Shown here: in pieces, positions 1 to 12,326 of the stretch
Layout: every line of letters begins with the position of its first letter
Position numbering within the stretch: the first letter of the stretch is position 1
Virus record (IMG/VR): IMGVR_UViG_2778260995_000007
Coordinates: 1 to 12,819 of that record
Direction: 5' to 3' (one strand)
DNA length: 12,819 nt
From: a virus
Lineage: Duplodnaviria > Heunggongvirae > Uroviricota > Caudoviricetes
Made by a program: the position numbers and the translations under genes
Notes under the pieces: generated by a model
The model's database searches: none
What the model was told of the DNA's origin: nothing
Seen by the model: the letters and a program-made list of their open reading frames with translations, nothing else

Positions 1-117
1 GTTTCGCCGATTGTTTCCGGTGAGGTTATCCGTTCCCGTGGCGGCTCCACCTCTGAATTTACGCCGGGATATGTCAAACCCAAGCACTTAGCATGGCTTT
101 CTGAGGCTTTCGTGTAG
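1..117 (+). pseudogene. E: 5' fragment of lambda-type major capsid protein gene E; frame enters from upstream of the window, is broken after codons ...GYVKPKH (nt 87) and runs into element sequence to a TAG at 115-117
   Basis: Frame 1 translates VSPIVSGEVIRSRGGSTSEFTPGYVKPKH, which matches my recollection of lambda gpE; the continuation ...KPKHEVNPQMTLRRL is found at 10733 onward. Confidence 0.8.
77..86. repeat. Left copy of 10-bp direct repeat AACCCAAGCA (putative attL core)
   Basis: Identical 10-mer at 10731-10740; flanking bases differ on both sides. Confidence 0.6.
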
Positions 118-249: not shown

Positions 250-1485
250 ATGGCTGGCGAGAACAAACTGAGCGACAAAGCGCTTAAAGGATATCTGGGG
301 AAACCCAGAGAAAAGCAGATCACCATTGCTGATGGAAAGGGGCTTTCTATTCGTGTGAGTACTAAAGGGGCTGTGAGCTTTGTTTTCTTCTACAGGTTAG
401 CAGGTGGCCGGGCTGCTCCGGTCTGGCTAACGTTGGGTAAATATCCTGATATGTCACTCAAACAGGCAAGGGAAAAGCGCGACGAGTGCCGTGGTTGGTT
501 GGCTGACAAACGTGATCCGCGTATCCAGATAAAGATTCAGGCTGAAGAACGCTTAAAGCCGGTCACAGTGGAGGATGCACTAAATTACTGGTATGAAAAT
601 TACTGTAAGGTGCGTCGTAAAACTCATGCTGTAACGCTTGGCAGATTTCGAAAGCATATCTTTCCCTATATCGGTCATTTGCCCGTAAATGACACTCACC
701 TATATGAATGGCTGGACTGTTTTGACCGAATTAAACGTAATGCACCAGTTATGGCGGCGTATGTTTTTTCTGACACTAAATTAGCTCTTCGTTTTTGTCG
801 GGTACGCCAGTACGCGACGTGTGATGCTTTAAAGGATTTGCGCATGAGTGATGTGGGGCAGATTGCAGGTAAGCGGGATCGGGTTCTGGATGAAGCCGAA
901 CTCGGCCAGCTCTGGAAGGCAATTTTTGTCGAGCCTGATTTAAAACTAATGTCTGAATACACGCGAAAAATGTTTGTGCTTTGTACACTATTTGGATGTC
1001 GAATGAGTGAAGCCCGATTATCAGAATGGAGCGAATGGGATCTCGAAAGTTGGGTTTGGACTGTACCAAAAGATCACTCAAAAACTGGTGTTGAAATCGT
1101 CAGACCAGTACCTGAAATTCTACGACAGTGGGTAACGGATGTTCACGAAGAGACAAAACATACTGGTTATGTGCTGGGAAGTCTGCGAATTAGAGAAAGC
1201 GTAAGCAAGATTGGGGGGAAAATCGGTAAACGTTTGGGCCATGAAAAACAATGGTCACTACACGACCTTAGAAGAACGCTATCTACTCATCTAAGTGATC
1301 TCGGTGTTGAATTTTATGTAGTAGAACAACTGTTAGGCCATGCGCTACCTGGCGTGGCAGGTGTTTACAACCGGAGTAAGTTTATGGCTAAAAAACTGGA
1401 TGCTCTGGAACTCTGGACTACATATCTCAATAGCATCGCAGGTGCTGATTCAAAAGTGACAATCCTCAAACAAAAGGCTGGTTAA
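250..1485 (+). CDS. int: Tyrosine site-specific integrase, P4-type
   Basis: ORF 199-1485; start placed at ATG 250 (MAGENKLSDKALKGYL...). N-terminal region and C-terminal ...HDLRRT...LLGHA... motifs are typical of P4-family integrases; sits next to the attL repeat. Confidence 0.88.
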   Translation: MAGENKLSDKALKGYLGKPREKQITIADGKGLSIRVSTKGAVSFVFFYRLAGGRAAPVWLTLGKYPDMSLKQAREKRDECRGWLADKRDPRIQIKIQAEERLKPVTVEDALNYWYENYCKVRRKTHAVTLGRFRKHIFPYIGHLPVNDTHLYEWLDCFDRIKRNAPVMAAYVFSDTKLALRFCRVRQYATCDALKDLRMSDVGQIAGKRDRVLDEAELGQLWKAIFVEPDLKLMSEYTRKMFVLCTLFGCRMSEARLSEWSEWDLESWVWTVPKDHSKTGVEIVRPVPEILRQWVTDVHEETKHTGYVLGSLRIRESVSKIGGKIGKRLGHEKQWSLHDLRRTLSTHLSDLGVEFYVVEQLLGHALPGVAGVYNRSKFMAKKLDALELWTTYLNSIAGADSKVTILKQKAG

Positions 1486-1486
1486 C

Positions 1487-1714
1487 ATGAAAAAAATGGC
1501 AATTGTTGATAAAAAGGGTCTGGAGTACATTCCTAACATTGATCGTATGATCCGTGAGAAAGAATGTCGGGAGCTAACCACTCTTGCGAACAGCACACGC
1601 TGGAAGCTGGAGAAGGAAGGAAAATTTCCTAAGCGGATCAAGATTGGCGCTACTGCGGTAGCTTACCGTCTCTCCGAAGTTCAGGCATGGATTAGGGGGG
1701 AATGGCGGACATAA
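1487..1714 (+). CDS. alpA: AlpA-family HTH regulator / excisionase-like protein
   Basis: 75 aa; ...LTTLANSTRWKLEKEGKFPKRIKIGATAVAYRLSEVQAWI is a typical AlpA (Phage_AlpA) HTH; ATG lies 1 nt after the int stop, suggesting translational coupling. Confidence 0.8.
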   Translation: MKKMAIVDKKGLEYIPNIDRMIREKECRELTTLANSTRWKLEKEGKFPKRIKIGATAVAYRLSEVQAWIRGEWRT

Positions 1715-1750: not shown

Positions 1751-2626
1751 ATGGCTACTCGAAAAAAAAATAGCGTAGAAATGAAAACTGTTTGTGAACT
1801 AATCATATCAAGAGATGATATGAAAGATAAAATTCAAGACAGAATTCAAAAAGGATTATTACTCCTACAGAAAAGCATAAATAACAATAGTGACTTGGAG
1901 CTGTTTAATGCTGATTACAGGAAATGGAGTGATTTTAATGCTGAGCTACTGAAGCGTAGTTTCACAAATGATGATTTCAAAGAAGAATATGAAGGTGGGG
2001 CATTTGGTGTTATTTCATTGTACGAGACTTCCTTGGGAGAAAAAATCAGTGAGGCTACGCGTAAACTCCAGAGTAAGATAAGAAAACTAGAGTCGATTAT
2101 GGAGCGACTGGAGTTAATTCCTATATCTTCCAAAGTTGTTGAAGAAAATATTGAAGTACCTCAGAGTTCAGCGGTAAAAACCAAAAAAGTATTCATTGTT
2201 CATGGAAGAGATGAAGTATCAAAAACCAACTTAGAAGTGTTTTTAAGAGAAATTGGCTTAGAACCTATTGTTCTCCATAGGCAAGCTGATGTAGGTCAGA
2301 CAGTGATTGAGAAATTTGAAGCAAATAGTGATGTTGGTTTCGCATTCATTCTTCTCACACCTGATGAGATCGCTTATTTATTTCCGCAAGACTCTTTACC
2401 TGATAATGAAAGAGAAAAGGAGTTACGTGCACGACCAAATGTAATGTTTGAATTTGGTTATTTCGTAGGGAAATTAGGTCGTTCTAAGGTTTGTTGTCTA
2501 TACACAGGTGATGTAGTGATTCCAAGTGATTTGAATGGTCTTATTTATAAAAAATTCAATTCTTCTATTGAAGAAGTAGCATATAGCATTATTAAAGACT
2601 TGCGAGCTACTGGTTACGCAGTTTAG
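1751..2626 (+). CDS. Cargo protein with an N-terminal helical region and a C-terminal TIR-like domain (resembles the COG4271/CAP12-type TIR-like fold); candidate anti-phage effector
   Basis: 291-aa ORF, visibly AT-rich compared with neighbours. C-terminal KKVFIVHGRDE...FAFILLTPDE...RARPNVMFEFGYFVGKLGRSKV matches the motif pattern I recall for TIR-like proteins. Not confirmed by search. Confidence 0.6.
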   Translation: MATRKKNSVEMKTVCELIISRDDMKDKIQDRIQKGLLLLQKSINNNSDLELFNADYRKWSDFNAELLKRSFTNDDFKEEYEGGAFGVISLYETSLGEKISEATRKLQSKIRKLESIMERLELIPISSKVVEENIEVPQSSAVKTKKVFIVHGRDEVSKTNLEVFLREIGLEPIVLHRQADVGQTVIEKFEANSDVGFAFILLTPDEIAYLFPQDSLPDNEREKELRARPNVMFEFGYFVGKLGRSKVCCLYTGDVVIPSDLNGLIYKKFNSSIEEVAYSIIKDLRATGYAV

Positions 2627-2701: not shown

Positions 2702-2881
2702 TTAAATTTTGACTTCATATCCGCGTTGCTGTAGTTCTTTGCGAATAATCCTTTTAATCCAGGCTGCTAAAGATTCGTCTCCATCTACTTGCTGTGCTTG
2801 CTCCATCAACTCCCTCAACTCAGGATCTAACCGAAACTGGAACGGAGGATTACCACGTCTTTGATTTTTGTGTGTTGACAC
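2702..2881 (-). CDS. Small Arc/MetJ-like ribbon-helix-helix DNA-binding protein (59 aa from GTG 2881; a 34-aa version from ATG 2806 would lack the ribbon strand)
   Basis: Minus-strand translation VSTHKNQRRGNPPFQFRLDPELRELMEQAQQVDGDESLAAWIKRIIRKELQQRGYEVKI has an Arc-like strand-helix-helix pattern. Below the length cut-off of the supplied ORF track; start codon uncertain. Confidence 0.4.
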   Translation of the reverse strand: MSTHKNQRRGNPPFQFRLDPELRELMEQAQQVDGDESLAAWIKRIIRKELQQRGYEVKI

Positions 2882-2929
2882 GTCAATTACACCCGATGTA
2901 ATGTGTTAATGTGTGATGACACATTACAT
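2875..2929. promoter_or_regulatory. Promoter/operator region: plus-strand TTGACA (2875-2880) - 16 nt - TGTAAT (2897-2902); 11-bp inverted repeat ATGTAATGTGT (2896-2906) / ACACATTACAT (2919-2929) plus tandem TAATGTGT (2899-2906, 2907-2914)
   Basis: Seen directly in the intergenic region between the minus-strand RHH ORF and the plus-strand operon starting at 3012; palindrome arms overlap the candidate -10 elements. Confidence 0.4.
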
Positions 2930-2948
2930 ACGTGTTTAGGAAAATGCA

Positions 2949-2981
2949 ACGCCTCGACGTGCGGGAACACCATCGAGGCGT
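2949..2981 (+). promoter_or_regulatory. GC-rich hairpin in the 5' leader of the replication operon (9-bp stem ACGCCTCGA / TCGAGGCGT, 15-nt loop); no downstream U-tract
   Basis: Perfect inverted repeat seen directly, 30 nt upstream of ATG 3012. Confidence 0.3.
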
Positions 2982-3011
2982 CTAACCAACCCGTTAAATG
3001 AGGTAACGATT

Positions 3012-3377
3012 ATGGCTGGAACACAGCATACCCAAACTCACCCTAAATTTATATACACCTTTCTGGCACTACACCACGACCGCATGGCAGATGGAGCAAC
3101 TACGGTACATGTAGCCGCTGACACGCTGGTTGATGCCCGCAAGATGGTTAAGGAGATGGGCTATACTGCGGCTTTCTGGAAAGGGCGTGAAGAAAACACG
3201 CTGTTTATTCAGAAATGCGAAAACAATTTCATCTGGCGTTTTATCGCCCTGAGCACCGCACAACCACGCGTAATACACATCGAGGCCGCCAGCGAACAGG
3301 AAGCCCGGCTGCAATCCCCAACTGGCTACGTGATGATATTCGCCGCCCGTATTCGTCAGGAGGTGTGCCATGAATGA
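3012..3377 (+). CDS. Hypothetical protein, first gene of replication-module operon
   Basis: 121-aa ORF with GAGGT RBS 6 nt upstream; stop overlaps the next start. Confidence 0.65.
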   Translation: MAGTQHTQTHPKFIYTFLALHHDRMADGATTVHVAADTLVDARKMVKEMGYTAAFWKGREENTLFIQKCENNFIWRFIALSTAQPRVIHIEAASEQEARLQSPTGYVMIFAARIRQEVCHE

Positions 3378-3594
3378 TCTTTATTTTAAAGTGCTGACAC
3401 ATGCTGAAAACGCGCTCGTTTGTGGCAAAAATATGCGAGAAATCTTATCAACCTGGCTTGATGGGACAACAAATGCGGAACACGATGAACGGGATGCTAA
3501 TTTAGCTGGAGCGTTAATTACGTTACTTGATCCTGTCATCAAAGAGCTGGATGAAGCTATAAAAATACACGACCAGAGCTATACCGGAGAATAA
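3370..3594 (+). CDS. Hypothetical small protein
   Basis: 74-aa ORF; AGGAGG 4 nt upstream of ATG; 8-nt overlap with the upstream ORF. Confidence 0.6.
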   Translation: MNDLYFKVLTHAENALVCGKNMREILSTWLDGTTNAEHDERDANLAGALITLLDPVIKELDEAIKIHDQSYTGE

Positions 3595-3597
3595 AAA

Positions 3598-3885
3598 ATG
3601 AAAAATAAATTTTCTGGCTTTATTGCCAGCGGTCAAACTCATTCAAAAATCAGCCTTGGGGATATTTTCAAAGACAGCTATGGCTATCGGGTAAAGATTA
3701 TTTCGGTTGATGATCGTCGTGTCTCTTATTTGCGTGATGGTTATGATTTTGAATGTGTTATGCCGCGTCAGCAGTTCGAAAGAGATTTCATTCTGGTAAA
3801 AAATTGCAAGACAGATAATCAGAGGCGTGCCGCAGGCTATATCCGCAAAATTCGGGCAATGTTAGTTGCCGGAGGTAACAAATGA
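3598..3885 (+). CDS. Hypothetical small protein
   Basis: 95-aa ORF packed tightly between neighbours; stop overlaps the primase start (ATGA). Confidence 0.6.
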   Translation: MKNKFSGFIASGQTHSKISLGDIFKDSYGYRVKIISVDDRRVSYLRDGYDFECVMPRQQFERDFILVKNCKTDNQRRAAGYIRKIRAMLVAGGNK

Positions 3886-5633
3886 AACGTGCTCCGAACT
3901 TAAAATACCAACCGCGCGACAAAATGACAGAAGTCATCATTTTTGCTGGCAGTGATGCCTGGAGCCATGCAAAAGAATGGAATGAATGGGCGGGTAAGCA
4001 TATTGCCGCCGACGATGTGCCGCCTGTCGTGCTGGCTGATGAGCAACTGAAAAATATCACCGATTACCGGATCATTGATGAAGATCGTCAGTGTGTGCGT
4101 GTTTACCGCGCAGGACATATCACAGAGCACAGCATGACGCAGATTGTTACGTTACTGGCTGTGGCTGGAGTGAAGACCGTACACGAATACGCGGGGATTA
4201 CTGACACCAGCCCAGTGGATTTATCCGAGCAGTTGCCGCGACTCAAAGAGGAATGCGAGCGTGGGGAAAGTCTGGTGCTTAATCTTCCGACGAAGCAAAA
4301 GGCGCAACTTTCACAGATGGCAGACAGTGAACGTGCACAACTACTTGCCGATCGCTTTGATGGTGTGTGTGTTCATGCAGAAAGTGAAATCGTCCACGTA
4401 TGGCGCGGCGGGGTATGGTGTCCGGTCAGCACAATGGAGCTGAGCCGCGAAATGGTGGCGATCTATTCAGAGCACAGGGCCACGTTCAGCAAACGTGTAA
4501 TCAATAACGCCGTGGAAGCGTTAAAAGTTATTGCCGACCCCATGGGGGAGCCGTCCGGTGATTTGCTACCGTTCACTAATGGTGTGCTTAACCTGAAAAC
4601 GGGGGAATTTTCTCCGCACTCGCCGGAGCACTGGAGCACCACGCACAATGGCATTGAGTACACGCCACCAGTAGCAGGGGAAAACATCCGCGATAATGCG
4701 CCAAATTTCCATAAATGGCTTGAACATGCTGCAAGAAAAGACCCGCGCAAGATGATGCGTATATGTGCCGCGTTATACATGATTATGGCGAACCGCTACG
4801 ACTGGCAGATGTTCATTGAGGCCACCGGAGACGGGGGAAGCGGTAAGAGTACATTTACCCATATTGCCACCCTGCTTGCTGGCAAACAGAACACCGTAAG
4901 CGCGGAGATGACATCACTCGATGATGCAGGAGGGCGCGCGCAGGTTGTCGGGAGTCGTCTTATCGTCCTTGCCGATCAGCCGAAATATACGGGGGAAGGC
5001 ACGGGCATCAAGAAAATCACGGGAGGCGATCCCGTTGAAATTAACCCGAAATATGAGAAGCGATTCACGACGATAATAAGGGCGGTGGTACTGGCAACCA
5101 ATAACGACCCGATGATCTTTACCGAACGAGCCGGAGGTGTGTCACGCCGTCGGGTGATTTTCCGGTTCGACAACATTGTAAGGGAGGACGAAAAAGACAA
5201 GGAATTACCGGAAAAGATAGCGGCAGAAATCCCCGTAATTATCCGCCGCTTGCTGGCTAATTTTGCTGACCCTGAAAAGGCACGGGCTTTATTACTGGAA
5301 CAGCGTGACGGTGATGAAGCTCTGGCAATAAAGCAGCAAACGGATCCGGTTGTTGAGCTTTGCGCGGCGCTGGAGTTTCTGGAGGAAGCTCGTGGGCTAA
5401 TGATGGGCGGTGGTGGTGACACCGTGAAGTACACGACCAGAAACAGCCTTTACCGTGTCTATATGGCCTTCATGGCATACACAGGAAAGGGGAAATGTTT
5501 GAGCGTGAATGAGTTCGGAAAGGCTATGAGGTCAGCGGCGAAAGTTTACGGATATGAATATATTACGCGAAAAGTTAAGGGAGTCACGCAGACCAACGCA
5601 ACGACTACTGATGATTGCGATGCGTTTTTATAA
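3882..5633 (+). CDS. Replication initiator: primase-associated SF3 helicase-type protein (P4 alpha C-terminal / D5-like family; the pri-rep of PICI-type satellites)
   Basis: 583 aa; Walker A GDGGSGKST and a downstream hydrophobic strand ending in D (LIVLAD) typical of P4-family primase-helicase C-terminal domains; GGAGG RBS; followed by an iteron array. Confidence 0.85.
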   Translation: MKRAPNLKYQPRDKMTEVIIFAGSDAWSHAKEWNEWAGKHIAADDVPPVVLADEQLKNITDYRIIDEDRQCVRVYRAGHITEHSMTQIVTLLAVAGVKTVHEYAGITDTSPVDLSEQLPRLKEECERGESLVLNLPTKQKAQLSQMADSERAQLLADRFDGVCVHAESEIVHVWRGGVWCPVSTMELSREMVAIYSEHRATFSKRVINNAVEALKVIADPMGEPSGDLLPFTNGVLNLKTGEFSPHSPEHWSTTHNGIEYTPPVAGENIRDNAPNFHKWLEHAARKDPRKMMRICAALYMIMANRYDWQMFIEATGDGGSGKSTFTHIATLLAGKQNTVSAEMTSLDDAGGRAQVVGSRLIVLADQPKYTGEGTGIKKITGGDPVEINPKYEKRFTTIIRAVVLATNNDPMIFTERAGGVSRRRVIFRFDNIVREDEKDKELPEKIAAEIPVIIRRLLANFADPEKARALLLEQRDGDEALAIKQQTDPVVELCAALEFLEEARGLMMGGGGDTVKYTTRNSLYRVYMAFMAYTGKGKCLSVNEFGKAMRSAAKVYGYEYITRKVKGVTQTNATTTDDCDAFL

Positions 5634-5646
5634 AAAATGGCAATGG

Positions 5647-5875
5647 TTATCTACCTTGTCTACCTGACTGAAAGAAAATACTTTTATTTCAATGTATTAA
5701 TGCAGGTAGATAACTATTTTTCACTGTCTACCTGTTATCTACCTTATCTACCCATTTTTGTAGACAGGTAAGGAGACGGGTAGAGATGAGGTAGACAGCT
5801 ATTTGGGGCTGTCTACCTCCCTGAAACCCGCGCCATTACTGGCCTGATAACTAATCAGGTAGACAAGGTAGACAA
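5647..5875. repeat. Iteron array, putative replication origin: about 12 copies of GGTAGA(C/T)A in both orientations around an AT-rich stretch (5667-5700)
   Basis: Seen directly: TTATCTACC/TTGTCTACC tandem at 5647-5664; GGTAGATAA at 5705-5713; three copies at 5725-5753; GGTAGACAA x2 at 5858-5875, and others. Confidence 0.7.
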
Positions 5876-5922
5876 GGTGGTGGTGCACAAAAAACTTTTT
5901 AAACGAGGGGGTAAAAATAAAA

Positions 5923-6165
5923 ATGCACACATCAGGAAAACTGAACAAACATATAAAGCCACATTACCGCGCCCTTGATATGGCTGAACACTGGCTAAGG
6001 GTGGCGATTAAGGCAATAGACCGCAACGCCGGGGAAGGATACGCGAAAGCACATCCCGAACTGATAAGCGCATTCATGACAACGGCGGCTGCAAACTTTG
6101 CCACGCTGACCGAACGGGAGATTGCCGAAGCGGAGGAAGTGACAACCATCAATATTAAGTCCTGA
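5923..6165 (+). CDS. Hypothetical protein
   Basis: 80-aa ORF with a G-rich RBS upstream; no recognisable motif. Confidence 0.5.
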   Translation: MHTSGKLNKHIKPHYRALDMAEHWLRVAIKAIDRNAGEGYAKAHPELISAFMTTAAANFATLTEREIAEAEEVTTINIKS

Positions 6166-6176
6166 GAGCAGGCAGC

Positions 6177-6626
6177 ATGACGGCGCAAATAGCAGCTTAC
6201 GGGCGGCTGGTGGACGAGCCACAGGTAAAACATACCAGCAAGGGAACACCCATGACACTGGCACGGATGGCGGTATCTTTGCCATGCAGCCAGGCAGATG
6301 ACGGAACGGCGACGATGTGGTTATCTGTGCTGGCGTTTGGCAGACAAGCCGACGCGCTGGCAAAGCATCACAAAGGCGAACTCCTGAGCGTGGCGGGTAA
6401 TATGCAGGTGAGCCAGTGGACTGGACAGAACGGTGAAACGCGGCAGGGCTGGCAGGTTATCGCAGACAGCGTAATCAGTGCGCGAACGGTGCGACCGGGC
6501 GGCAAAAAAGGTCAACAGGGTCAGGCTACTGACGCACTGAACAGAGCAAAACAACAGGCAGATCAGCAAGGAAGCCATCCACCAGTGGGAGATAATGAAC
6601 AATGGGGAGATGATATTCCGTTTTAA
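6177..6626 (+). CDS. Single-stranded DNA-binding protein-like (OB fold) with canonical acidic C-terminal tip ...DDIPF
   Basis: 149 aa; OB-fold pattern (...WLSVLAFGRQAD...KGELLSVAGNMQVSQWTGQNGETRQGWQV...) followed by a Gly/Gln-rich linker and C-terminal DDIPF, as in bacterial SSB. Confidence 0.7.
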   Translation: MTAQIAAYGRLVDEPQVKHTSKGTPMTLARMAVSLPCSQADDGTATMWLSVLAFGRQADALAKHHKGELLSVAGNMQVSQWTGQNGETRQGWQVIADSVISARTVRPGGKKGQQGQATDALNRAKQQADQQGSHPPVGDNEQWGDDIPF

Positions 6627-6844: not shown

Positions 6845-7885
6845 ATGGTCGATTTATATTCGCCTACCCAGCTTGTACAGGTGGTTAATGCTGTAGATGT
6901 ACAAAAACAACTAAATGCGTTGTTTACCAGTTTGTTTTTTACTCGCTCTGTAATGTTTGAATCGCGCGATATTATTCTTGATACAATCGACGATCCAAAT
7001 ATCCCAATTGCAGCGTTTTGTTCTCCTATGGTGGGTAGTAAAGTTTCACGTGACGAAGGGTACGAATCAAAAACAATTCGTCCAGGCTATATGAAGCCGA
7101 AAAGCAGCATTGATCCAAATAAGTTAGCTGTGCGCCCTGCTGGTGTATCACCTGAGCAATACAATGCTTTTGGAGCGCGTAATATTAAAGTTAAACAGGC
7201 GATTGTAAATCAGGCTAAAGCTATTCGTGCACGTATTGAATGGCTTGCCGTTCAGGCAATCACAACGGGGAAAAATATCATTGAGGGCGATGGTATTGAA
7301 CGTTATGAACTGGACTGGAATATAAAACCACAAAATATTATCACGCAGTCTGGCGGTGCTGAGTGGTCAGGTAAGGATAAAGAAACTTTTGATCCAAATG
7401 ATGATATTGAGAGCTACGCAGAATTTAGTGAGGGCGTCACTAATATCATCATTATGGGCGGTAATGTATGGAAGAAATACCGTTCATTCAGAGCGATAAA
7501 AGAGGCTCTGGATACCCGCCGTGGTTCTAATTCCGAACTGGAAACGGCCCTTAAAGACCTTGGTGATTCGGTGAGTTTTAAAGGGTATATGGGCGATGTT
7601 GCGATTGTTGTTTACAGCGGACGTTATACCGACGAGGACGGAACTGAAAAACATTTCCTTGATCCTGATTTGATGGTGCTTGGCAATACGGCTCTTCAGG
7701 GGATTGTCGCCTATGGCGGTATTCAGGATCCGGAGCTAACCCGAATGGGGCTGACTAAAGCCGAACTTGCACCGAAAAACTATATTGTGCCTGGTGATCC
7801 GGCTATTGAGTACGTACAAACGCACTCTGCACCACAGCCAATACCGGCCCGCATCAATCGTTTTGTTACCGTTCGCATTGGCTAA
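6845..7885 (+). CDS. Major capsid protein, diverged homologue of lambda gpE, encoded by the element
   Basis: Start moved to ATG 6845 (AAGAGG RBS), giving 346 aa, close to lambda E in size. Shares blocks with lambda E as I recall it: PGYMKPK, ITQSGGAEW, LDTRRGSNSELETA, GDVAIVVYSG, VLGNT, GDPA (roughly 40-50% identity by eye). Confidence 0.8.
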   Translation: MVDLYSPTQLVQVVNAVDVQKQLNALFTSLFFTRSVMFESRDIILDTIDDPNIPIAAFCSPMVGSKVSRDEGYESKTIRPGYMKPKSSIDPNKLAVRPAGVSPEQYNAFGARNIKVKQAIVNQAKAIRARIEWLAVQAITTGKNIIEGDGIERYELDWNIKPQNIITQSGGAEWSGKDKETFDPNDDIESYAEFSEGVTNIIIMGGNVWKKYRSFRAIKEALDTRRGSNSELETALKDLGDSVSFKGYMGDVAIVVYSGRYTDEDGTEKHFLDPDLMVLGNTALQGIVAYGGIQDPELTRMGLTKAELAPKNYIVPGDPAIEYVQTHSAPQPIPARINRFVTVRIG

Positions 7886-7894
7886 GGGGGAGCA

Positions 7895-8236
7895 ATGGCT
7901 ACTCATTACACTGAACTCATGTCTGGCACTGAAGCACTGGTTACTACGCTGGGGATATTTTCAGCCAATAAAGGGGTAATACCTGCGTTTACGCCACTGA
8001 TGCAGGAAGATGCAACTGGTGCGCTAGTGGTATGGGATGGAACGAGCGCAGGCAAAGCGGTTTATGTTTCCGCTGTACAAATCGACACAGCGAAAAAAAC
8101 ACAGGCACAGGTTTATAAGACAGGTGTTTTAAATGTTGATGCTCTGAACTGGCCTGAGTCTGTAAGAGAACTGTCGGCAAAGGTTGCCGCGTTTGTTGGC
8201 TCAGGTATTTCTGTTCAGCCGCTGGCTCGTGTGTAA
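7895..8236 (+). CDS. Head decoration protein, homologue of lambda gpD
   Basis: 113 aa; ...PAFTPLMQEDATGALVVWDGTSAGKAV...YKTGVLNVDALNWPE...AAFVGSGISV parallels lambda D (...PAMTPLM...LVAWDGTTDGAAV...YKSGTFRYEDVLWPE...TAFAGTAISIV); AAGGGGGA RBS. Confidence 0.8.
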   Translation: MATHYTELMSGTEALVTTLGIFSANKGVIPAFTPLMQEDATGALVVWDGTSAGKAVYVSAVQIDTAKKTQAQVYKTGVLNVDALNWPESVRELSAKVAAFVGSGISVQPLARV

Positions 8237-8247
8237 AGGGGGATACA

Positions 8248-8631
8248 ATGCAGAATCATTACAATGACCTTAAGCCAATTGCCGAAATGATGTACCCGAA
8301 TCCAGCTGTAGAGGAATTAAAAGCTATCGCTGACAAAATGTGTTTAAGCGAGCGCCTTGTTGATATGAATCAGGTGATGGAAATTACAACCCTGAGTCGG
8401 CGTACACTGCTAAACCTTGAGGCTAGTGGAGAGTTCCCGGAGCGTGTGCAGGTTACGGAAGGGCGTAAGGCCTGGTATTTAAGTGAAGTGATCGACTGGA
8501 TAAATAATATTCCTCGCGCTTCTGAATATTGCCGCGTACCTGTCCCAAAAAAGCCAGATGCGGCGCTATGCCTCAAGATTGAGCGTGTACGCCGCAATGC
8601 ACGGGATGGTCGCTATAAGCTGATTGGTTGA
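8248..8631 (+). CDS. AlpA/MerR-like HTH DNA-binding protein, larger than a typical AlpA, function unknown
   Basis: 127 aa; central ...MEITTLSRRTLLNLEASGEFPERVQVTEGRKAWYLSEVIDWI is an AlpA-type HTH; AAAGGGGGA RBS; follows the capsid genes. Confidence 0.65.
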   Translation: MQNHYNDLKPIAEMMYPNPAVEELKAIADKMCLSERLVDMNQVMEITTLSRRTLLNLEASGEFPERVQVTEGRKAWYLSEVIDWINNIPRASEYCRVPVPKKPDAALCLKIERVRRNARDGRYKLIG

Positions 8632-9287
8632 TGAAATTAGGGCCCGCTCTGGCTGGCGGGTCCTTTCCGGCGATCCAGAACGTTACGGGGCGTCAGGCGC
8701 GCAGTTTTTTGCTATTTATGAAAATTTTCCGGTTTAAAGCGTTTCCGTTCTTCTTCGCCGTAACTTAATGTTTTTATTAGAAACACCCACTAAAAAGAAA
8801 GGAAACAACAGATGCTGAAAACGTGTTTTTTGGACAGTGTCGTTTCCTTTCTCTGGTTTTGTTGCCGTCTGTCGCGGTCTGTCACCAGAAAAAACTCTCA
8901 CCCCTGCGTTGAATCAGGCTCTACACTAAAGTAGACAATAACGCGCCGCTGGCTTCGCTTCATGGTCGTGGCCTACTTCTGCACTATCGCAACAGCCTTA
9001 TGCGCCCTGCTGGTGAGCTATTGAGTAAGCAGAATGCGGATTACAAGGCATCCTATGCGTTTTGTGGCGTACCGAACACAACCGCTCAGGTGAATCCCGT
9101 TTTGTTAGTTTATGGAAAGAGCCGTATCGGGGGCGCAATCATTTCTGCGTGGATCTATGTCGAAGACAAAATGTGGTATGCGCATCTGGCCGGAGGGTGA
9201 GCAATTTATCAGGGAAGTATCATCTCTACAGGTTTAAGACAACCAGAAGAAGTTATCGAGCAAGTTGGGTATGAAGATTTTCCTATA

Positions 9288-9551
9288 ATGGTAACGTTTA
9301 AGATTCCGGTGTTTGGTATCGTGGTGGGAACATGGAGGAATGTGGATCCGGCAAAATCATTCGGTTTTTTCCGTCAATTCATTGTGGACTGGGATTAGGA
9401 GAGTGTGCTTACTGACCAAGCTCTTAAGGGATATTTATATGCTTACCTAGGCACTGATGAAGCACTTTTCAAATGCTGGGCGGATTATATGAAATGCAGA
9501 TTGGCAGAAAATGAACATAGGTTTAAAAAATATACTGAGACTGTAAACTGA
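9288..9551 (+). pseudogene. Possible decayed ORF: 87-codon frame broken by an in-frame TAG at 9396-9398, no RBS
   Basis: Translation MVTFKIPVFGIVVGTWRNVDPAKSFGFFRQFIVDWD*ESVLTDQALKGYLYAYLGTDEALFKCWADYMKCRLAENEHRFKKYTETVN*; sits in a ~1 kb stretch (8632-9676) without convincing genes. Confidence 0.2.
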
Positions 9552-9676
9552 GTTCGCTGTGATTTAATTCGTGATTTAATCGAAGAGAGGAAAGTGAAAT
9601 GAGCCCTGCTAAGGGCCGCATCTTTATATTGAACGACTTATCACTAGATTAGGAAATCACTTCGAATGATATGCTG

Positions 9677-10549
9677 TTACTTTATAATTCCGTCTTTGAA
9701 AACCATTTTCTTAGCGCCAGAGGTATAGTTTTGAACAATTCCCAATAACTCTTTTGAATAGTCAATTGTAGAAATTGTCTCTGCCGGTTTGTTATATGTG
9801 TAATTAAGTGAGTAACCTCTCAGCTTTAATCTTAAATCACCATTTTCTAACTCTAAATAAGCGTCGGTTAGCTCTTCTTTGTAAGTGCCTGCACCATATT
9901 GGATGTTAGGTACTCTCGCGGATAAGGAGTTTTCTAAGTCGCAGAGAGAATACTTGTCGTGGGTAGTATTATCAACGATGAATATTTGGTTGTTAAGTAG
10001 TCGACTGAACCTTGAATTTAAATCATCTATGTTTAAATTTTTTTGCGACTCAAGCCAGCTTGCATCTATCATTGGTGAGAATGCAGTTATTCTGGGGGGA
10101 GTTATCGCGACGATATTCAATTGAATAGTTTTGATAAGTGGTGTTCCATCTGGCGCGCGCCAGTCTTCGTTATCAGCTTCACGAACTATTAGAAGGTCAA
10201 TTTTATATTGTTCGGCTTTTTTTTGAGCCCCACTTTGATACCCTGTTTTGGTTGCATAAATTAGTCTTAGGCCGGGAATATCTGCTGTTTTTCCGATGAA
10301 TGCGTCAATTTTCTCGATACTTACACTTGAAGCGTAGTCTTTGCATTCGATTACGGTCTTATATTCATAACCTCCTAAGTTAAATTCCCAATACACATCG
10401 AATTGCCTAGTTATGCCGTTTTTATCTACGATTTTTTTGTTTACTTCAACGGTGATGTTTTTCAAGTGAGAAATTTTCTCAGCTTGTATCAAGCTTTGAT
10501 GAATCGCCCCAACAAATTCCTCATAATCTCTGCCAGTGTTTTTAGTCAT
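9677..10549 (-). CDS. Mrr-type restriction-endonuclease-like (PD-(D/E)xK) protein with an uncharacterised C-terminal domain; candidate defence nuclease
   Basis: Start placed at ATG 10549 (GAGG RBS 8 nt upstream; the track's 10567 start is TTG), 290 aa. N-terminal half shows a PD-(D/E)xK pattern (...QFDVYWEF...YKTVIECKDY...SIEKIDAFIGK...LIYATKTGYQSGA...). Visibly AT-rich. Confidence 0.75.
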   Translation of the reverse strand: MTKNTGRDYEEFVGAIHQSLIQAEKISHLKNITVEVNKKIVDKNGITRQFDVYWEFNLGGYEYKTVIECKDYASSVSIEKIDAFIGKTADIPGLRLIYATKTGYQSGAQKKAEQYKIDLLIVREADNEDWRAPDGTPLIKTIQLNIVAITPPRITAFSPMIDASWLESQKNLNIDDLNSRFSRLLNNQIFIVDNTTHDKYSLCDLENSLSARVPNIQYGAGTYKEELTDAYLELENGDLRLKLRGYSLNYTYNKPAETISTIDYSKELLGIVQNYTSGAKKMVFKDGIIK

Positions 10550-10730
10550 TGTGCAGCCTCGTTCCAATCATCAGAGTAACGGTTAAATATTTATACACCT
10601 TGAATCTATGAACAGATTTATGTCACTTCACGCTGTATTGCACGCTGTATTGCATTAAGGAGGAATAATGTCGATTTGATGATGTTTTATCAAGTAAATT
10701 CATTCACATCCTTTCATATTTGACTCATGT

Positions 10731-10740
10731 AACCCAAGCA
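10731..10740. repeat. Right copy of 10-bp direct repeat AACCCAAGCA (putative attR core)
   Basis: Identical to 77-86; the E reading frame resumes directly here (CCC AAG CAT GAG GTG = P K H E V). Confidence 0.6.
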
Positions 10741-11521
10741 TGAGGTGAATCCGCAGATGACCCTGCGTCGCCTGCCGGATGAAGATCCGCAGAATCTGGC
10801 GGACCCAGCTTACCGCCGCCGTCGCATCATCATGCAGAACATGCGTGACGAAGAGCTGGCCATTGCTCAGGTCGAAGAGATGCAGGCAGTTTCTGCCGTG
10901 CTTAAGGGCAAATACACCATGACCGGTGAAGCCTTCGATCCGGTTGAGGTGGATATGGGCCGCAGTGCGGCGAATAACATCACGCAGTCCGGCGGCACGG
11001 AGTGGAGCAAGCGTGACAAGTCCACGTATGACCCGACCGACGATATCGAAGCCTACGCGCTGAACGCCAGCGGTGTGGTGAATATCATCGTGTTTGATCC
11101 GAAAGGCTGGGCGCTGTTCCGTTCCTTCAAAGCCGTCAAGGAGAAGCTGGATACCCGTCGTGGCTCTAATTCCGAGCTGGAGACAGCGGTGAAAGACCTG
11201 GGTAAAGCGGTGTCCTATAAGGGGATGTATGGCGATGTTGCCATCGTCGTGTATTCCGGACAGTACGTGGAAAACGGTGTCAAAAAGAACTTCCTGCCGG
11301 ACAACACGATGGTGCTGGGGAACACTCAGGCACGCGGTCTGCGTACCTATGGCTGTATTCAGGATTCGGACGCACAGCGCGAAGGCATTAACGCATCTGC
11401 CCGTTACCCGAAAAACTGGGTGACCACCGGCGATCCGGCGCGTGAGTTCACCATGATTCAGTCAGCACCGCTGATGCTGCTGGCTGACCCTGATGAGTTC
11501 GTGTCCGTACAACTGGCGTAA
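10733..11521 (+). pseudogene. E: 3' fragment of lambda-type major capsid protein gene E (from ...KPKHEVNPQMTLRRL to the C-terminus)
   Basis: Translation matches my recollection of the lambda gpE C-terminal ~260 aa almost residue for residue; an in-frame TAA at 10730-10732 closes the frame upstream. Confidence 0.85.
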
Positions 11522-11523
11522 TC

Positions 11524-11550
11524 ATGGCCCTTCGGGGCCATTTTCTCTCT
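11524..11550 (+). terminator. Rho-independent terminator-like hairpin after E (ATGGCCC-TTCG-GGGCCAT followed by a T-rich tract)
   Basis: 7-bp GC-rich stem with TTCG tetraloop and TTTTCTCTCT tail, seen directly 3 nt after the E stop. Confidence 0.6.
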
Positions 11551-11562
11551 GTGGAGGAGTCC

Positions 11563-11961
11563 ATGACGAAAGATGAACTGATTGCCCGCCTCCGCTCGTT
11601 GGGTGAGCAACTGAACCGTGATGTCAGCCTGACGGGGACGAAAGAAGAACTGGCGCTCCGTGTGGCAGAGCTGGAAGAGGAGCTTGATGACACGGATGAC
11701 ACTGCCGGTCAGGACACCCCTCTCAGCCCGGAAAATGTGCTGACCGGGCATGAAAATGAGGCTGTATCAGCGCAGCCGGATACCGTGATTCAGGATGCGG
11801 CTGATCTGGTCACCGTTGTGGCACTGGTGACGCTGCATACTGATGCACTTCACGCCATCCGGGATGAACCTGTGGCATTTGTGATGCCGGGAACGGCGTT
11901 CCGTGTCTCTGCCGGTGTGGCAACCGAAATGACAGAACGCGGCCTGGCCAGAATGCAATAA
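11563..11961 (+). CDS. FI: Lambda-type head assembly/DNA packaging protein FI
   Basis: Start at ATG 11563 with GGAGGAG RBS (the track's ORF begins upstream at 11524); MTKDELIARLRSLGEQLNRDVSLTGTKEELALRVAEL... matches lambda gpFI as I recall it. Confidence 0.88.
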   Translation: MTKDELIARLRSLGEQLNRDVSLTGTKEELALRVAELEEELDDTDDTAGQDTPLSPENVLTGHENEAVSAQPDTVIQDAADLVTVVALVTLHTDALHAIRDEPVAFVMPGTAFRVSAGVATEMTERGLARMQ

Positions 11962-11972
11962 CGGGAGGCGCT

Positions 11973-12326
11973 GTGGCTGATTTCGATAACCTGTTCGATG
12001 CTGCCATTGCCCGCGCCGATGAAACGATACGCGGGTACATGGGAACGTCAGCCACCATTACATCCGGTGAGCAGTCCGGTGCTGTGATACGTGGTGTTTT
12101 TGATGACCCTGAAAATATCAGCTATGCCGGACAGGGCGTGCGCGTTGAAGGCTCCAGCCCGTCCCTGTTTGTCCGGACTGATGAGGTGCGGCAGCTGCGG
12201 CGTGGAGACACGCTGACCATCGGTGAGGAAAACTTCTGGATAGACCGGGTTTCGCCGGATGATGGCGGAAGTTGTCATCTCTGGCTTGGACGGGGCGTAC
12301 CGCCTGCCGTTAACCGTCGCCGCTGA
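11973..12326 (+). CDS. FII: Lambda-type head-tail joining protein FII
   Basis: GTG start with GGGAGG RBS; MADFDNLFDAAIARADETIRGYMGTSATITSGEQSGAVIRGVFDDPENISYAGQGVRVEG... matches lambda gpFII. Confidence 0.88.
   Translation: MADFDNLFDAAIARADETIRGYMGTSATITSGEQSGAVIRGVFDDPENISYAGQGVRVEGSSPSLFVRTDEVRQLRRGDTLTIGEENFWIDRVSPDDGGSCHLWLGRGVPPAVNRRR

Follow-up and report, generated by a model that had tools for sequence, protein, structure and literature searches.

Gram-negative PICIs are elements of about 10-15 kb whose packaging signal is either a helper-type cos site or a terS gene of their own (Fillol-Salom 2018). Among those described to date, the helper-embedded PICI 11capE, reported by Tommasini et al. 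2023 (PMC10111431), was seen to excise and replicate while its virions were not detected, and 201 instances of PICIs have been recorded at the same E:Phage_cap_E_80 site (PMC10111431). In EcCICFT073, in turn, a capsid and a head decoration protein are encoded by c1499 and c1500, respectively (Fillol-Salom et al. 2018; PMC6092414), and helper-dependent induction, packaging and high-frequency transfer of this PICI have been demonstrated (PMC6092414). The initial annotation of the DNA studied here assumed that satellites described so far are either remodellers of helper capsids or owners of a complete head module. That premise was mistaken: classical Gram-negative PICIs with just a capsid homologue, accompanied or not by a decoration homologue, were on record already, as with c1499/c1500 (PMC6092414), and 21 of the 29 Gram-negative PICIs taken as references are reported to have a capsid gene (PMC10111431).

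The window, by which we mean the whole stretch of 12,819 nucleotides analysed here, contains a 10,654-bp element that is almost certainly a helper-embedded PICI of the published 11capE or E:Phage_cap_E_80 type, co-oriented with the gene E of a lambdoid prophage in which it lies. Positions 6845-8236 almost certainly constitute the conserved late-zone capsid and decoration cassette of enterobacterial PICIs, the counterpart of c1499/c1500. Both the gene pair and the nesting of an island within a capsid gene have been published previously, and the element is not of a new kind; what goes beyond published work is the purifying selection on the cassette, the finding of no phage capsid more than 42% identical to its own, and its occurrence in portal-gene and chromosomal islands. 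The sequence features expected of a Gram-negative PICI were found, namely an int-alpA left end, rightward core genes (all on the plus strand, with int leftmost and alpA following), a primase with iterons, a length of 10,654 bp and a cos-like site. The features of the window are as follows.

1-117, plus strand: 5' fragment of the helper lambda-type capsid gene E, matching at 100% identity the E N-terminal fragments of locus L001 and other loci
77-86, plus strand: attL core AACCCAAGCA, one of exactly two copies in the window
250-1485, plus strand: tyrosine integrase (411 aa) like those of E-site helper-embedded PICIs (Pfam Arm-DNA-bind_3, Phage_integrase)
1487-1714, plus strand: AlpA-family regulator/excisionase (PF05930 at 6e-15)
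1751-2626, plus strand: cargo, TIR-domain protein (CAP12/Pycsar-effector type) of the PADLOC candidate defence family PDC-S35 (PF10137 1.5e-33; PDC-S35 4.9e-67)
2702-2881, minus strand: small Arc-like / YlcI-YnfO-type protein, 59 aa (PHROG 228 at 1.6e-5; the gene at this position in relatives is annotated YlcI/YnfO family)
3012-3377, plus strand: protein with an Icd-like (host cell-division inhibitor) domain (NCBIfam NF033153 at 8.8e-22)
3370-3885, plus strand: two small conserved PICI genes, of 74 aa and, DUF4222-type by its annotation in relatives, 95 aa (PHROG 2196, PHROG 285)
3882-5633, plus strand: primase/replication protein (Pfam D5_N, DUF5906 and Pox_D5 domains)
5640-5880: putative replication origin directly 3' of the primase gene, made up of roughly ten iterons (GGTAGAC/GGTAGAT) that occur in both orientations, in agreement with the published location of the PICI ori (PMC6092414)
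5923-6165, plus strand: conserved 80-aa protein (PHROG 1231 at 8.5e-46; syntenic in relatives)
6177-6626, plus strand: single-strand DNA-binding protein (PF00436 at 2.3e-14)
6845-7885, plus strand: island major capsid protein (MCP), lambda gpE family, 346 aa (Pfam, PHROG and structure-library matches, dN/dS)
7895-8236, plus strand: island head decoration protein (Dec), gpD/SHP family, 113 aa (Pfam, PHROG and structure-library matches, dN/dS)
8248-8631, plus strand: second AlpA-like winged-HTH protein, 127 aa (PF05930 7.6e-9; PHROG 2790 1.1e-49)
8656-8868, plus strand: cos-like packaging site (similarity to lambdoid and helper cos)
9677-10567, minus strand: cargo, Mrr-type restriction-endonuclease-like protein (PF04471 at 1.2e-4; close relatives annotated 'restriction endonuclease')
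10731-10740, plus strand: attR core AACCCAAGCA, the other of exactly two window copies
10731-11521, plus strand: remaining 3' portion of helper gene E from codon 79 onwards, without a start codon of its own (PF03864, identity to lambda-type E)
11524-12326, plus strand: helper head-completion genes FI (11524-11961) and FII (11973-12326), by comparison with L001

The disruption of the helper E gene, proposed from the initial annotation, is evident in the E fragments that flank the island with the 10-bp core at each junction. Helper E sequence stops inside the core at 77-86 (E codon 82), from where the frame of the 5' fragment continues into the island up to a stop codon at 115-117, while the 3' part matches PF03864 at 1e-50 (profile positions 94-328) and is 97-98% identical to lambda-type E. 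The att repeat is exactly 10 bp long, the flanking bases being unlike between the two junctions, and two copies of AACCCAAGCA were seen in 0 of 200 shuffles. The cores lie 10,654 bp apart and cover codons 79-82 of lambda-type E, and a crossover within them regenerates an E gene reading GYVKPKHEVNPQ, the same as lambda E. Downstream, FI and FII are 89-97% identical to the L001 genes annotated FI and head-tail joining protein, and the orthologous island in L001 is surrounded by a full helper head and tail operon. The integrase is 99.5% identical to that of L001, which uses the same insertion site, and at least 99% identical to the same-site integrases in 39 IMG/VR loci and L001, against 53% identity to the integrase of portal-site islands. 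Within the MCP gene, GGCTATATGAAGCCGAAAAGC occupies 7085-7105, where five of the ten positions equivalent to the att core carry another base, so that the att-equivalent site does have different nucleotides, as had been claimed; that the capsid gene of such an island is unable to serve as a self-insertion target was already remarked for 11capE in PMC10111431.

With Eco567.11capE, a PICI of 11 kb, the locus shares its placement within the lambda-type capsid gene of a lambdoid prophage, in the same orientation as that gene E, the 10-bp attL/attR block, and a same-family capsid gene of its own with different att-equivalent nucleotides (PMC10111431). The order int, alpA, pri and late zone and the helper-like cos in both island and prophage are likewise common to the two. 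Unlike Eco567.11capE, as far as its published description is concerned, the window carries as cargo a TIR/PDC-S35 gene and an Mrr-like nuclease. Resemblance to EcCICFT073 lies in a cassette made up of the same two genes, arranged alike, in the late zone, in lambda-type helpers and in an intact HK97-fold MCP. EcCICFT073 nevertheless represents another sub-clade (MCP 55% and Dec 51% identical to the window, via the CFT073-type locus L003), and occupies a chromosomal site, whereas the window island resides in a prophage. It also retargets the helper TerS by means of RppA (PMC6739421), whereas no Rpp homologue was detected beside the cos of the window island in a sequence search of the PDB library, provided that the library includes an Rpp structure.

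The assignment of the two cassette proteins, a full-length gpE homologue and a gpD homologue according to the initial annotation, withstood profile searches, which it had proposed as a check, and searches of solved structures, with strong matches for both (7VI9, 3BQW, 1TD0, 1C5E). The MCP reading frame starts with an ATG at 6845, preceded 7-8 nt upstream by the ribosome-binding site AGAGGA, and its product matches PF03864 (Phage_cap_E) with an E-value of 6.5e-42, aligning to positions 4-327 of the 329 in the profile and scoring 144 bits against a curated cutoff of 22.9, a full-length family match; for PHROG 29 ('major head protein') the E-value was 2.3e-92. Among solved structures, it matched lambda gpE (7VI9) at 1.3e-76 across residues 12-345 and 3BQW at 7e-121, the latter being 97% identical to the MCP of the CFT073-type PICI (L003) and 55% to that of the window. 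Identity to lambda E, which was the closest phage record among 50,697 (42% in that search), amounts to 42.8% end to end without truncation, and identity to the C-terminal fragment of helper E to 48%. Divergence from lambda E is greatest on the N-terminal side of the fold, the first ~160 residues being 27-38% identical as against 58-68% in the centre. Dec matches PF02924 (HDPD) over its full length at 4.6e-15 (56.2 bits, curated cutoff 29.1), PHROG 49 ('head decoration') at 1.9e-26, phage 21 SHP (1TD0) at 3.3e-16 and lambda gpD at ~2e-12 (7VII; 1C5E at 2.2e-12), with 35% identity to lambda D and 39% to helper-type D. No NCBIfam model matched MCP, Dec or the 127-aa HTH protein. Because the MCP is 43-55% identical over its full length to two solved structures (7VI9, 3BQW), with gpD and SHP matched by Dec, the predicted folds of both proteins can be taken as settled.

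Both proteins thus belong to the same families as lambda gpE/gpD and phage 21 SHP, with full-length matches and Dec closest to SHP. Unlike in lambda, the gene order is reversed, as had been noted, and no Nu3, C or B genes adjoin the pair: the E-like gene precedes the D-like one, with 9 nt between them, an order invariant across all cassette loci examined, whereas the helper prophage (L001) has D then E. We also confirmed the absence of other head genes, since Pfam, PHROG and NCBIfam scans of every element ORF recovered no family of portal, protease, scaffold or terminase proteins. There was no head-tail connector match in the element either, MCP and Dec being all that it has of a head module, and the same scans recovered no tail or lysis gene families in the island ORFs. 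In this the island departs from the cf-PICIs, which also encode an HK97-fold capsid protein (bioRxiv 10.1101/2022.09.08.507074) but possess a full repertoire for head building and packaging (capsid, portal, protease, connectors and terminase), taking only tails from the helper (bioRxiv 10.1101/2022.09.08.507074); the window island, with MCP and Dec only, lacks such a complete module. P4 is comparable as an enterobacterial satellite with an integrase, an AlpA/Vis-type regulator, a D5-type primase and helper cos packaging, although it exploits P2-type helpers, and neither its Psu, which decorates capsids, nor its Sid is related to gpD or gpE; homologues of Sid, Psu and Delta were absent from the island ORFs in the Pfam, PHROG and NCBIfam scans.

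The cassette was found in 421 of 5,426 complete E. coli genomes (~8%) and occurs in Escherichia, Kluyvera, Superficieibacter, Cedecea and Kosakonia, with intact ORFs of near-constant length in more than 130 loci; MCP and Dec have 346 and 113 aa in the window and six relatives, and 351 and 111 aa in L003, all of them intact. Amino-acid identities range over 77-92% for MCP and 66-87% for Dec, synonymous sites are saturated, and dN/dS amounts to 0.02-0.09 for MCP and 0.04-0.11 for Dec. Sequence comparison therefore places both genes under strong purifying selection across the five genera, and both products are, judging from this selection and from their intactness, functional proteins. Helper late-gene capture by PICI late zones does occur (PMC10111431), and the cassette could in principle be a non-functional leftover of an old capture of this kind, in keeping with its having no knockout phenotype (PMC6092414); this explanation retains a nearly negligible probability and is effectively refuted by the selection analysis (dN/dS 0.02-0.11), together with the intact ORFs in five genera and the number of loci and genomes that carry them. 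A recent capture from the helper was rejected as well, identity to the resident helper E being 41-50% in every locus and the order reversed. As the best phage match is only 42% identical and the E-then-D order is fixed, the cassette appears to be an old island lineage.

The initial annotation had linked the cassette to the disrupted E gene, a link that the analysis weakened. In its favour, both genes are kept in 59 of 59 E-site islands (those E-site-integrase loci with enough downstream sequence), under purifying selection. However, cassettes at least 97% identical are found in islands that split the portal gene B (L056, L061); these islands bring no copy of the portal gene, and the D and E genes of their helpers are uninterrupted. 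The cassette is also present in islands at chromosomal sites (L002, L003), so that the disrupted E alone does not explain the cassette. These observations bear on a backup role, also raised in PMC10111431, in which island MCP and Dec would replace helper gpE while E is still split, yielding heads before or without excision. Retention in all 59 E-site loci, compared with a capsid gene in 21 of the 29 reference PICIs (PMC10111431), and the co-orientation of the island with the late operon would suit such a role. We consider it quite unlikely, not only because of the portal-gene and chromosomal islands, but also because E is exactly restored on excision and the composite of prophage and island (~61 kb; PMC10111431) is above lambda head capacity, which implies that packaging of the phage requires excision of the island.

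We tentatively favour, as the most likely role, an auxiliary supply of shell built on the helper portal and scaffold. Upon helper induction, late transcription of the helper head operon would continue into the island, which points the same way, a read-through suggested by the co-orientation, and MCP and Dec would be expressed. The island would excise at the 10-bp core, restoring helper E, and would replicate through its own primase and origin. Since the MCP is a complete HK97-fold protein but scaffold, portal and protease are all missing from the island, island MCP would use the portal and scaffold of the helper to build lambda-sized shells, either by itself or together with helper gpE. The three-fold sites of these shells would be cemented by the cognate Dec rather than by helper gpD. 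Helper terminase would then fill these shells from the island cos with a concatemer of about four genomes (4 x 10.65 = 42.6 kb). The absence of other head genes and the helper-like cos site point to such dependence on the helper, and multimer packaging into phage-sized heads is suggested by the near-constant island length (10.16-10.77 kb from the int start to attR in 25 complete copies) and by the precedent of EcCICFT073, whose multimers are packaged into phage-sized heads (PMC6092414). The cassette would thus lower dependence on helper E and D, being redundant with them in laboratory tests, and would not be a specific replacement for the interrupted E gene. Weighing against shell supply are the null deletions in EcCICFT073, an MCP only ~43% identical to gpE, which would have to use Nu3 and the B portal, the deviant cosN position of the island, and a promoter and terminator scan around the cassette that did not exceed shuffled sequence.

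As to those deletions, removal of c1499 or c1500 from EcCICFT073 left transfer and lambda interference unchanged, with no phenotype (PMC6092414), and our literature searches found no later functional work on PICI capsid and decoration genes. The result also bears on the idea that island MCP lowers phage yield by co-assembling or competing with the capsid proteins of the helper or of superinfecting lambdoid phages, or acts as a decoy for capsid-sensing host immunity. Satellites commonly hinder helper morphogenesis (PMC6893505), and the divergence between MCP and gpE (43% identity) would be enough for defective mixed lattices; we nonetheless regard this as distinctly improbable, since lambda interference is intact after deletion of either gene (PMC6092414) and maps in EcCICFT073 to Rpp acting on TerS (PMC6739421). 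A dedicated Dec under purifying selection is, moreover, hard to reconcile with a poison subunit. As with lambda gpD, a decoration protein has a use only once the lattice has assembled and expanded. The co-retention of Dec with MCP would therefore favour shell formation over a poison subunit, as would the fact that the N-terminal ~160 residues of MCP are the most diverged from lambda E.

A further precedent is Ccm of SaPIbov5, likewise a satellite-encoded capsid homologue acting with other head genes from the helper (PMC6893505, PMC8569155), albeit one that is 23% identical to the helper capsid protein, requires that protein and has no decoration partner. Ccm changes capsid size and interferes strongly, neither effect having been tied to an E. 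coli PICI capsid gene. If island MCP behaved like Ccm (PMC6893505, PMC8569155), it would bias assembly towards small capsids that fit island DNA and not phage DNA, as might be expected from the 10.65-kb length of the island, far below helper genome size, and from PmCI172, which has small heads and an encoded capsid homologue (PMC6092414). Such redirection seems highly doubtful given that, with lambda as helper, all the packaged DNA of EcCICFT073 was phage-sized, that no island-monomer band was seen in its native host (PMC6092414, PMC6893505), and that interference was not relieved by deletion of c1499.

Auxiliary shell supply admits a stronger form, which we judge somewhat unlikely, where island MCP and Dec form an all-satellite, lambda-sized shell on the helper portal, scaffold and protease. 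Were this the case, classical PICIs would be 'half capsid-forming', a functional and evolutionary intermediate between whole-capsid thieves and the cf-PICIs that take only tails, and the null knockouts would reflect redundancy with helper gpE and gpD. The cassette is widespread, strongly selected and unlike sequenced phage capsid genes, yet without a known phenotype; the shell composition of island-transducing particles bears on whether classical Gram-negative PICIs are pure capsid thieves, and on what share of a virion a satellite can supply with no scaffold or portal of its own.

The cos-like site was located by similarity instead of by a cosN pattern, as canonical lambda cosN GGGCGGCGACCT was not found in the window with up to two mismatches. 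The region is 86-88% identical to lambdoid phage cos and to the L001 helper cos, which lies just upstream of Nu1. The cosN position, 8688-8699, reads GGGCGTCAGGCG and differs from the helper cosN at 5 of 12 bases, so that the packaging step is not straightforward; if the shell is all-satellite, the island-specific variant may possibly belong, with MCP and Dec, to one self-sufficient packaging module. A tblastn search of the window with the TerS proteins of related PICIs gave no match. Around the cassette, promoter and terminator counts were no higher than in shuffled sequence, and we make no claim of an independent promoter; an Rfam scan of the whole window at the gathering threshold gave no match, including to C4/isrK-type immunity RNA. 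None of the complete E. coli genomes covers more than 74% of the window.

The 127-aa HTH protein was also considered as a candidate Rpp and rejected on sequence grounds, since a PDB sequence search with an E limit of 1 matched AlpA (8C3T, 2.2e-9) and no other DNA-binding structure. With E 0.12, the protein shows no significant resemblance to the winged helix of Nu1. Its gene follows that of Dec in seven of the eight loci compared.

The ORF map and domain scans of the window delineate a compact island lying between the two halves of a lambda-type capsid gene, with the features listed below.

Features of the island in the window
250-1485, integrase
1487-1714, AlpA
1751-2626, TIR-domain cargo gene
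2702-3885, small Arc-like, Icd-like and DUF4222-type genes
3882-5633, D5-type primase
5640-5880, GGTAGAC iteron run
5923-6165, conserved 80-aa protein
6177-6626, SSB
6845-7885, capsid gene (product MCP)
7895-8236, decoration gene (product Dec)
8248-8631, second AlpA-like HTH gene
8656-8868, cos-like site
9677-10567, minus strand, Mrr-like nuclease

On the left flank, positions 1-86 encode the helper E residues ...VSPIVSGEVIRSRGGSTSEFTPGYVKPK, while on the right the remainder of E resumes from 10731 and is followed by FI and FII. The 10-bp core AACCCAAGCA occurs exactly twice in the window, at 77-86 and 10731-10740, and two copies were found in none of 200 shuffles. Because the flanking bases are unlike at the two junctions, the repeat measures exactly 10 bp, which sets the island length at 10,654 bp. 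When the halves are joined at the core, the result is GYVKPKHEVNPQ, which is what lambda E has at codons 76-87, so that E would be restored by excision. The island has the orientation of the helper late operon. This configuration was named helper-embedded PICI in a survey that counted 201 cases at this E site and a further 290 at other late-gene sites, among them the 11-kb Eco567.11capE of E. coli NRG857c, which has an attL/attR identity block of 10 bp and in which composite excision and replication precede island excision (Tommasini, Mageeney and Williams, PMC10111431). About ten GGTAGAC/GGTAGAT iterons, in both orientations, flank an AT-rich stretch directly 3' of the primase gene (5640-5880), which would be the expected replication origin of the island.

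The capsid-like ORF aligns collinearly and at full length with lambda gpE, matching Pfam Phage_cap_E (E 6.5e-42, 324 of 329 profile positions), PHROG 29 (2.3e-92) and the lambda capsid cryo-EM chain 7VI9 (1.3e-76). MCP shares 42.8% identity with lambda E overall (27-38% over residues 1-160, 58-68% over 161-280 and 38% in the C-terminal part) and 48% with the resident helper E fragment. No phage capsid protein more than 42% identical to it was found among 50,697 phage records, lambda being the best. 3BQW, titled "putative capsid protein of prophage" in the PDB, is 55% identical to MCP and 97% identical to the capsid gene of L003, a CFT073-type chromosomal-site island, so a crystal structure already exists for one member of the island capsid clade. 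Dec matches Pfam HDPD (4.6e-15), PHROG 49 (1.9e-26), phage 21 SHP (3.3e-16) and lambda gpD (~2e-12), with 35-39% identity to lambda-type D.

The Pfam, PHROG and structure-entry matches bear out the initial annotation of the pair as capsid-like and decoration-like ORFs. The capsid gene comes first and the decoration gene second, separated by 9 nt, whereas helper prophages have D then E; this reversal had been read correctly, as had the lack of portal, protease, scaffold and terminase genes, none of which was found among the ORFs of the window. The sequence quoted for 7085-7105, within the capsid gene, is present there; of the 10 positions compared with the att core, 5 differ. The observation was thus correct in every particular and its sequence reading accurate. 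Its premise, by which a satellite has either a complete head module of its own or the means to remodel helper capsids, is wrong for this island family: EcCICFT073 encodes capsid protein c1499 and head decoration protein c1500 (Fillol-Salom et al., PMC6092414), and 21 of 29 reference Gram-negative PICIs have a capsid gene (PMC10111431). The finding re-describes published biology and is already known; what is added here is the selection analysis, the finding that no phage capsid protein is closely related, the fixed synteny of capsid, decoration and HTH genes, and the occurrence of the two-gene cassette in portal-embedded islands, results that sharpen the question of its role without answering it.

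At least 80% of the 1,392-bp cassette was present in 421 of 5,426 complete E. coli genomes (365-404 by megablast), and the E'-int junction in 175 genomes. Orthologues with 79-87% amino-acid identity occur in Kluyvera, Superficieibacter, Cedecea and Kosakonia, those of the last two likewise embedded in an E gene. All cassette genes compared (the window and seven relatives) are intact, with 346 capsid and 113 decoration codons in the window and six of the relatives, and 351 and 111 in L003. Intergenus synonymous sites are saturated, protein identity still being 77-92% for MCP and 66-87% for Dec, and dN/dS, where estimable, is 0.02-0.09 and 0.04-0.11, respectively. On these comparative sequence grounds, namely spread, intact lengths, low dN/dS and the lack of a phage capsid above 42% identity, the cassette is a long-standing selected island component, and neither a decaying remnant nor a recent copy of helper genes. 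That it is a relic is refuted by the selection analysis and is hardly credible.

The initial annotation had further tied the cassette to the disrupted helper E, a link that holds in part. Both genes were carried by 59 of 59 integrase-anchored E-site loci in IMG/VR, counting those with enough downstream sequence, but the association extends beyond this site. In a capsid-anchored sample of 80 IMG/VR loci with MCP at least 97% identical to that of the window, an integrase was visible in 57, being of the E-site type in 39, only 53% identical in 11 and 25-44% identical in 7. Detailed mapping of two of the 53% loci (L056 and L061, about 2400-14400) places the islands in the portal gene B of a lambda-like prophage, interrupted near residue 275, with helper C, D and E intact downstream. 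These islands encode MCP, Dec and HTH proteins 98.6%, 95.6% and 96% identical to those of the window plus a Nu1-like TerS, and no portal copy was found on them. More distant cassette versions reside in chromosomal islands, next to tRNA-Pro/yejM and in the roxA-phoQ interval. The cassette therefore moves among islands differing in integrase, replicase and packaging genes, and compensation for the interrupted gene cannot alone explain it. A specific backup for the disrupted E gene is unlikely, given the near-identical cassette in portal-gene-B islands whose helper E is intact.

A further IMG/VR locus (L073, about 9000-16500) shows helper A and W followed directly by an SSB fragment, MCP, Dec, HTH, a TerS-like gene and the 3' part of B, and, beyond these, C, D and just the initial 120 codons of E. 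Lacking integrase, primase and the 5' portion of B, the locus looks like a degraded portal-site island fixed in its prophage.

The reading that we tentatively hold to be the most likely is one of shell supply. Late transcription would run into the island, leading to expression of MCP and Dec; using the portal and scaffold of the helper, MCP would form shells of lambda size, by itself or together with gpE, and the cognate Dec would stabilise them; and helper terminase would package about four island genomes (42.6 kb). Behind it stand two complete proteins under purifying selection and an island with its own primase and ori and no scaffold, portal, protease or terminase. A cement protein acts only on the expanded lattice, and such a protein would not persist for a poison or decoy subunit, which is the main argument for real shell formation. 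The most diverged part of MCP relative to lambda E, the first ~160 residues on the N-terminal side of the fold, fits a co-adapted MCP-Dec pair.

In EcCICFT073, deletion of c1499 or c1500 left both interference with lambda and transfer by the resident prophage unchanged (PMC6092414). These knockout data, together with the presence of a decoration protein, disfavour interference or a decoy function, which we consider quite improbable. With lambda as helper, the packaged EcCICFT073 DNA was phage-sized, and in relatives multimers are packaged into heads of full size (PMC6092414); the phage-sized DNA likewise speaks against a Ccm-like redirection of capsid size, a distinctly improbable role.

The cos-like site (8656-8868) is 86-88% identical to lambdoid and helper cos. 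Despite variable cargo, the distance from int start to attR is 10.16-10.77 kb in 25 complete E-site islands (L089-L152, IMG/VR), a narrow range consistent with island length being limited by cos packaging of a whole number of copies (4 copies, ~41-43 kb). At the 12-nt cosN position, E-site islands (window 8688-8699; about 15963 in the relative L001) have GGGCGTCAGGCG, differing at 5 of 12 bases from the canonical GGGCGGCGACCT of the helper prophage. This variant recurs, with unchanged position in the island, in 36 further loci retrieved (L001 and 35 more), and the site still has a left block of helper type (GGGTCCTTTCCGGCGATCC) and a cosB side resembling that of the helper. The canonical cosN is retained in portal-site and tRNA-site islands that encode a Nu1-like TerS themselves (L056, L002).

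A 127-aa AlpA-like winged-HTH protein (8248-8631) is encoded between the decoration gene and cos in seven of eight loci compared, with 64-99% identity across five genera, and is absent from L003. Its similarity to the Nu1 winged helix was not significant (E 0.12), and, to judge by the position of its gene, it may act in late regulation or in determining packaging specificity.

The TIR-domain cargo (1751-2626), of the CAP12/Pycsar-effector type, occupies a variable slot directly after alpA and matches the PADLOC candidate single-gene defence family PDC-S35 (4.9e-67). Just inside attR and opposed to the island direction, the gene for a 296-aa Mrr-type restriction-endonuclease-like protein (9677-10567, minus strand), which had no PADLOC match, is probably a second defence cargo. 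None of the 5,426 complete E. coli genomes covered more than 74% of the window (shared parts 97% identical), and its cargo combination is absent among them. Between cos and the Mrr-like gene, ~780 bp (8900-9676) contain only short ORFs (36-70 aa) of no assigned family; one part (about 9024-9169) shares 73% identity with its counterpart in the Kluyvera island L004, and the segment may represent decayed cargo or a non-coding element that is conserved.
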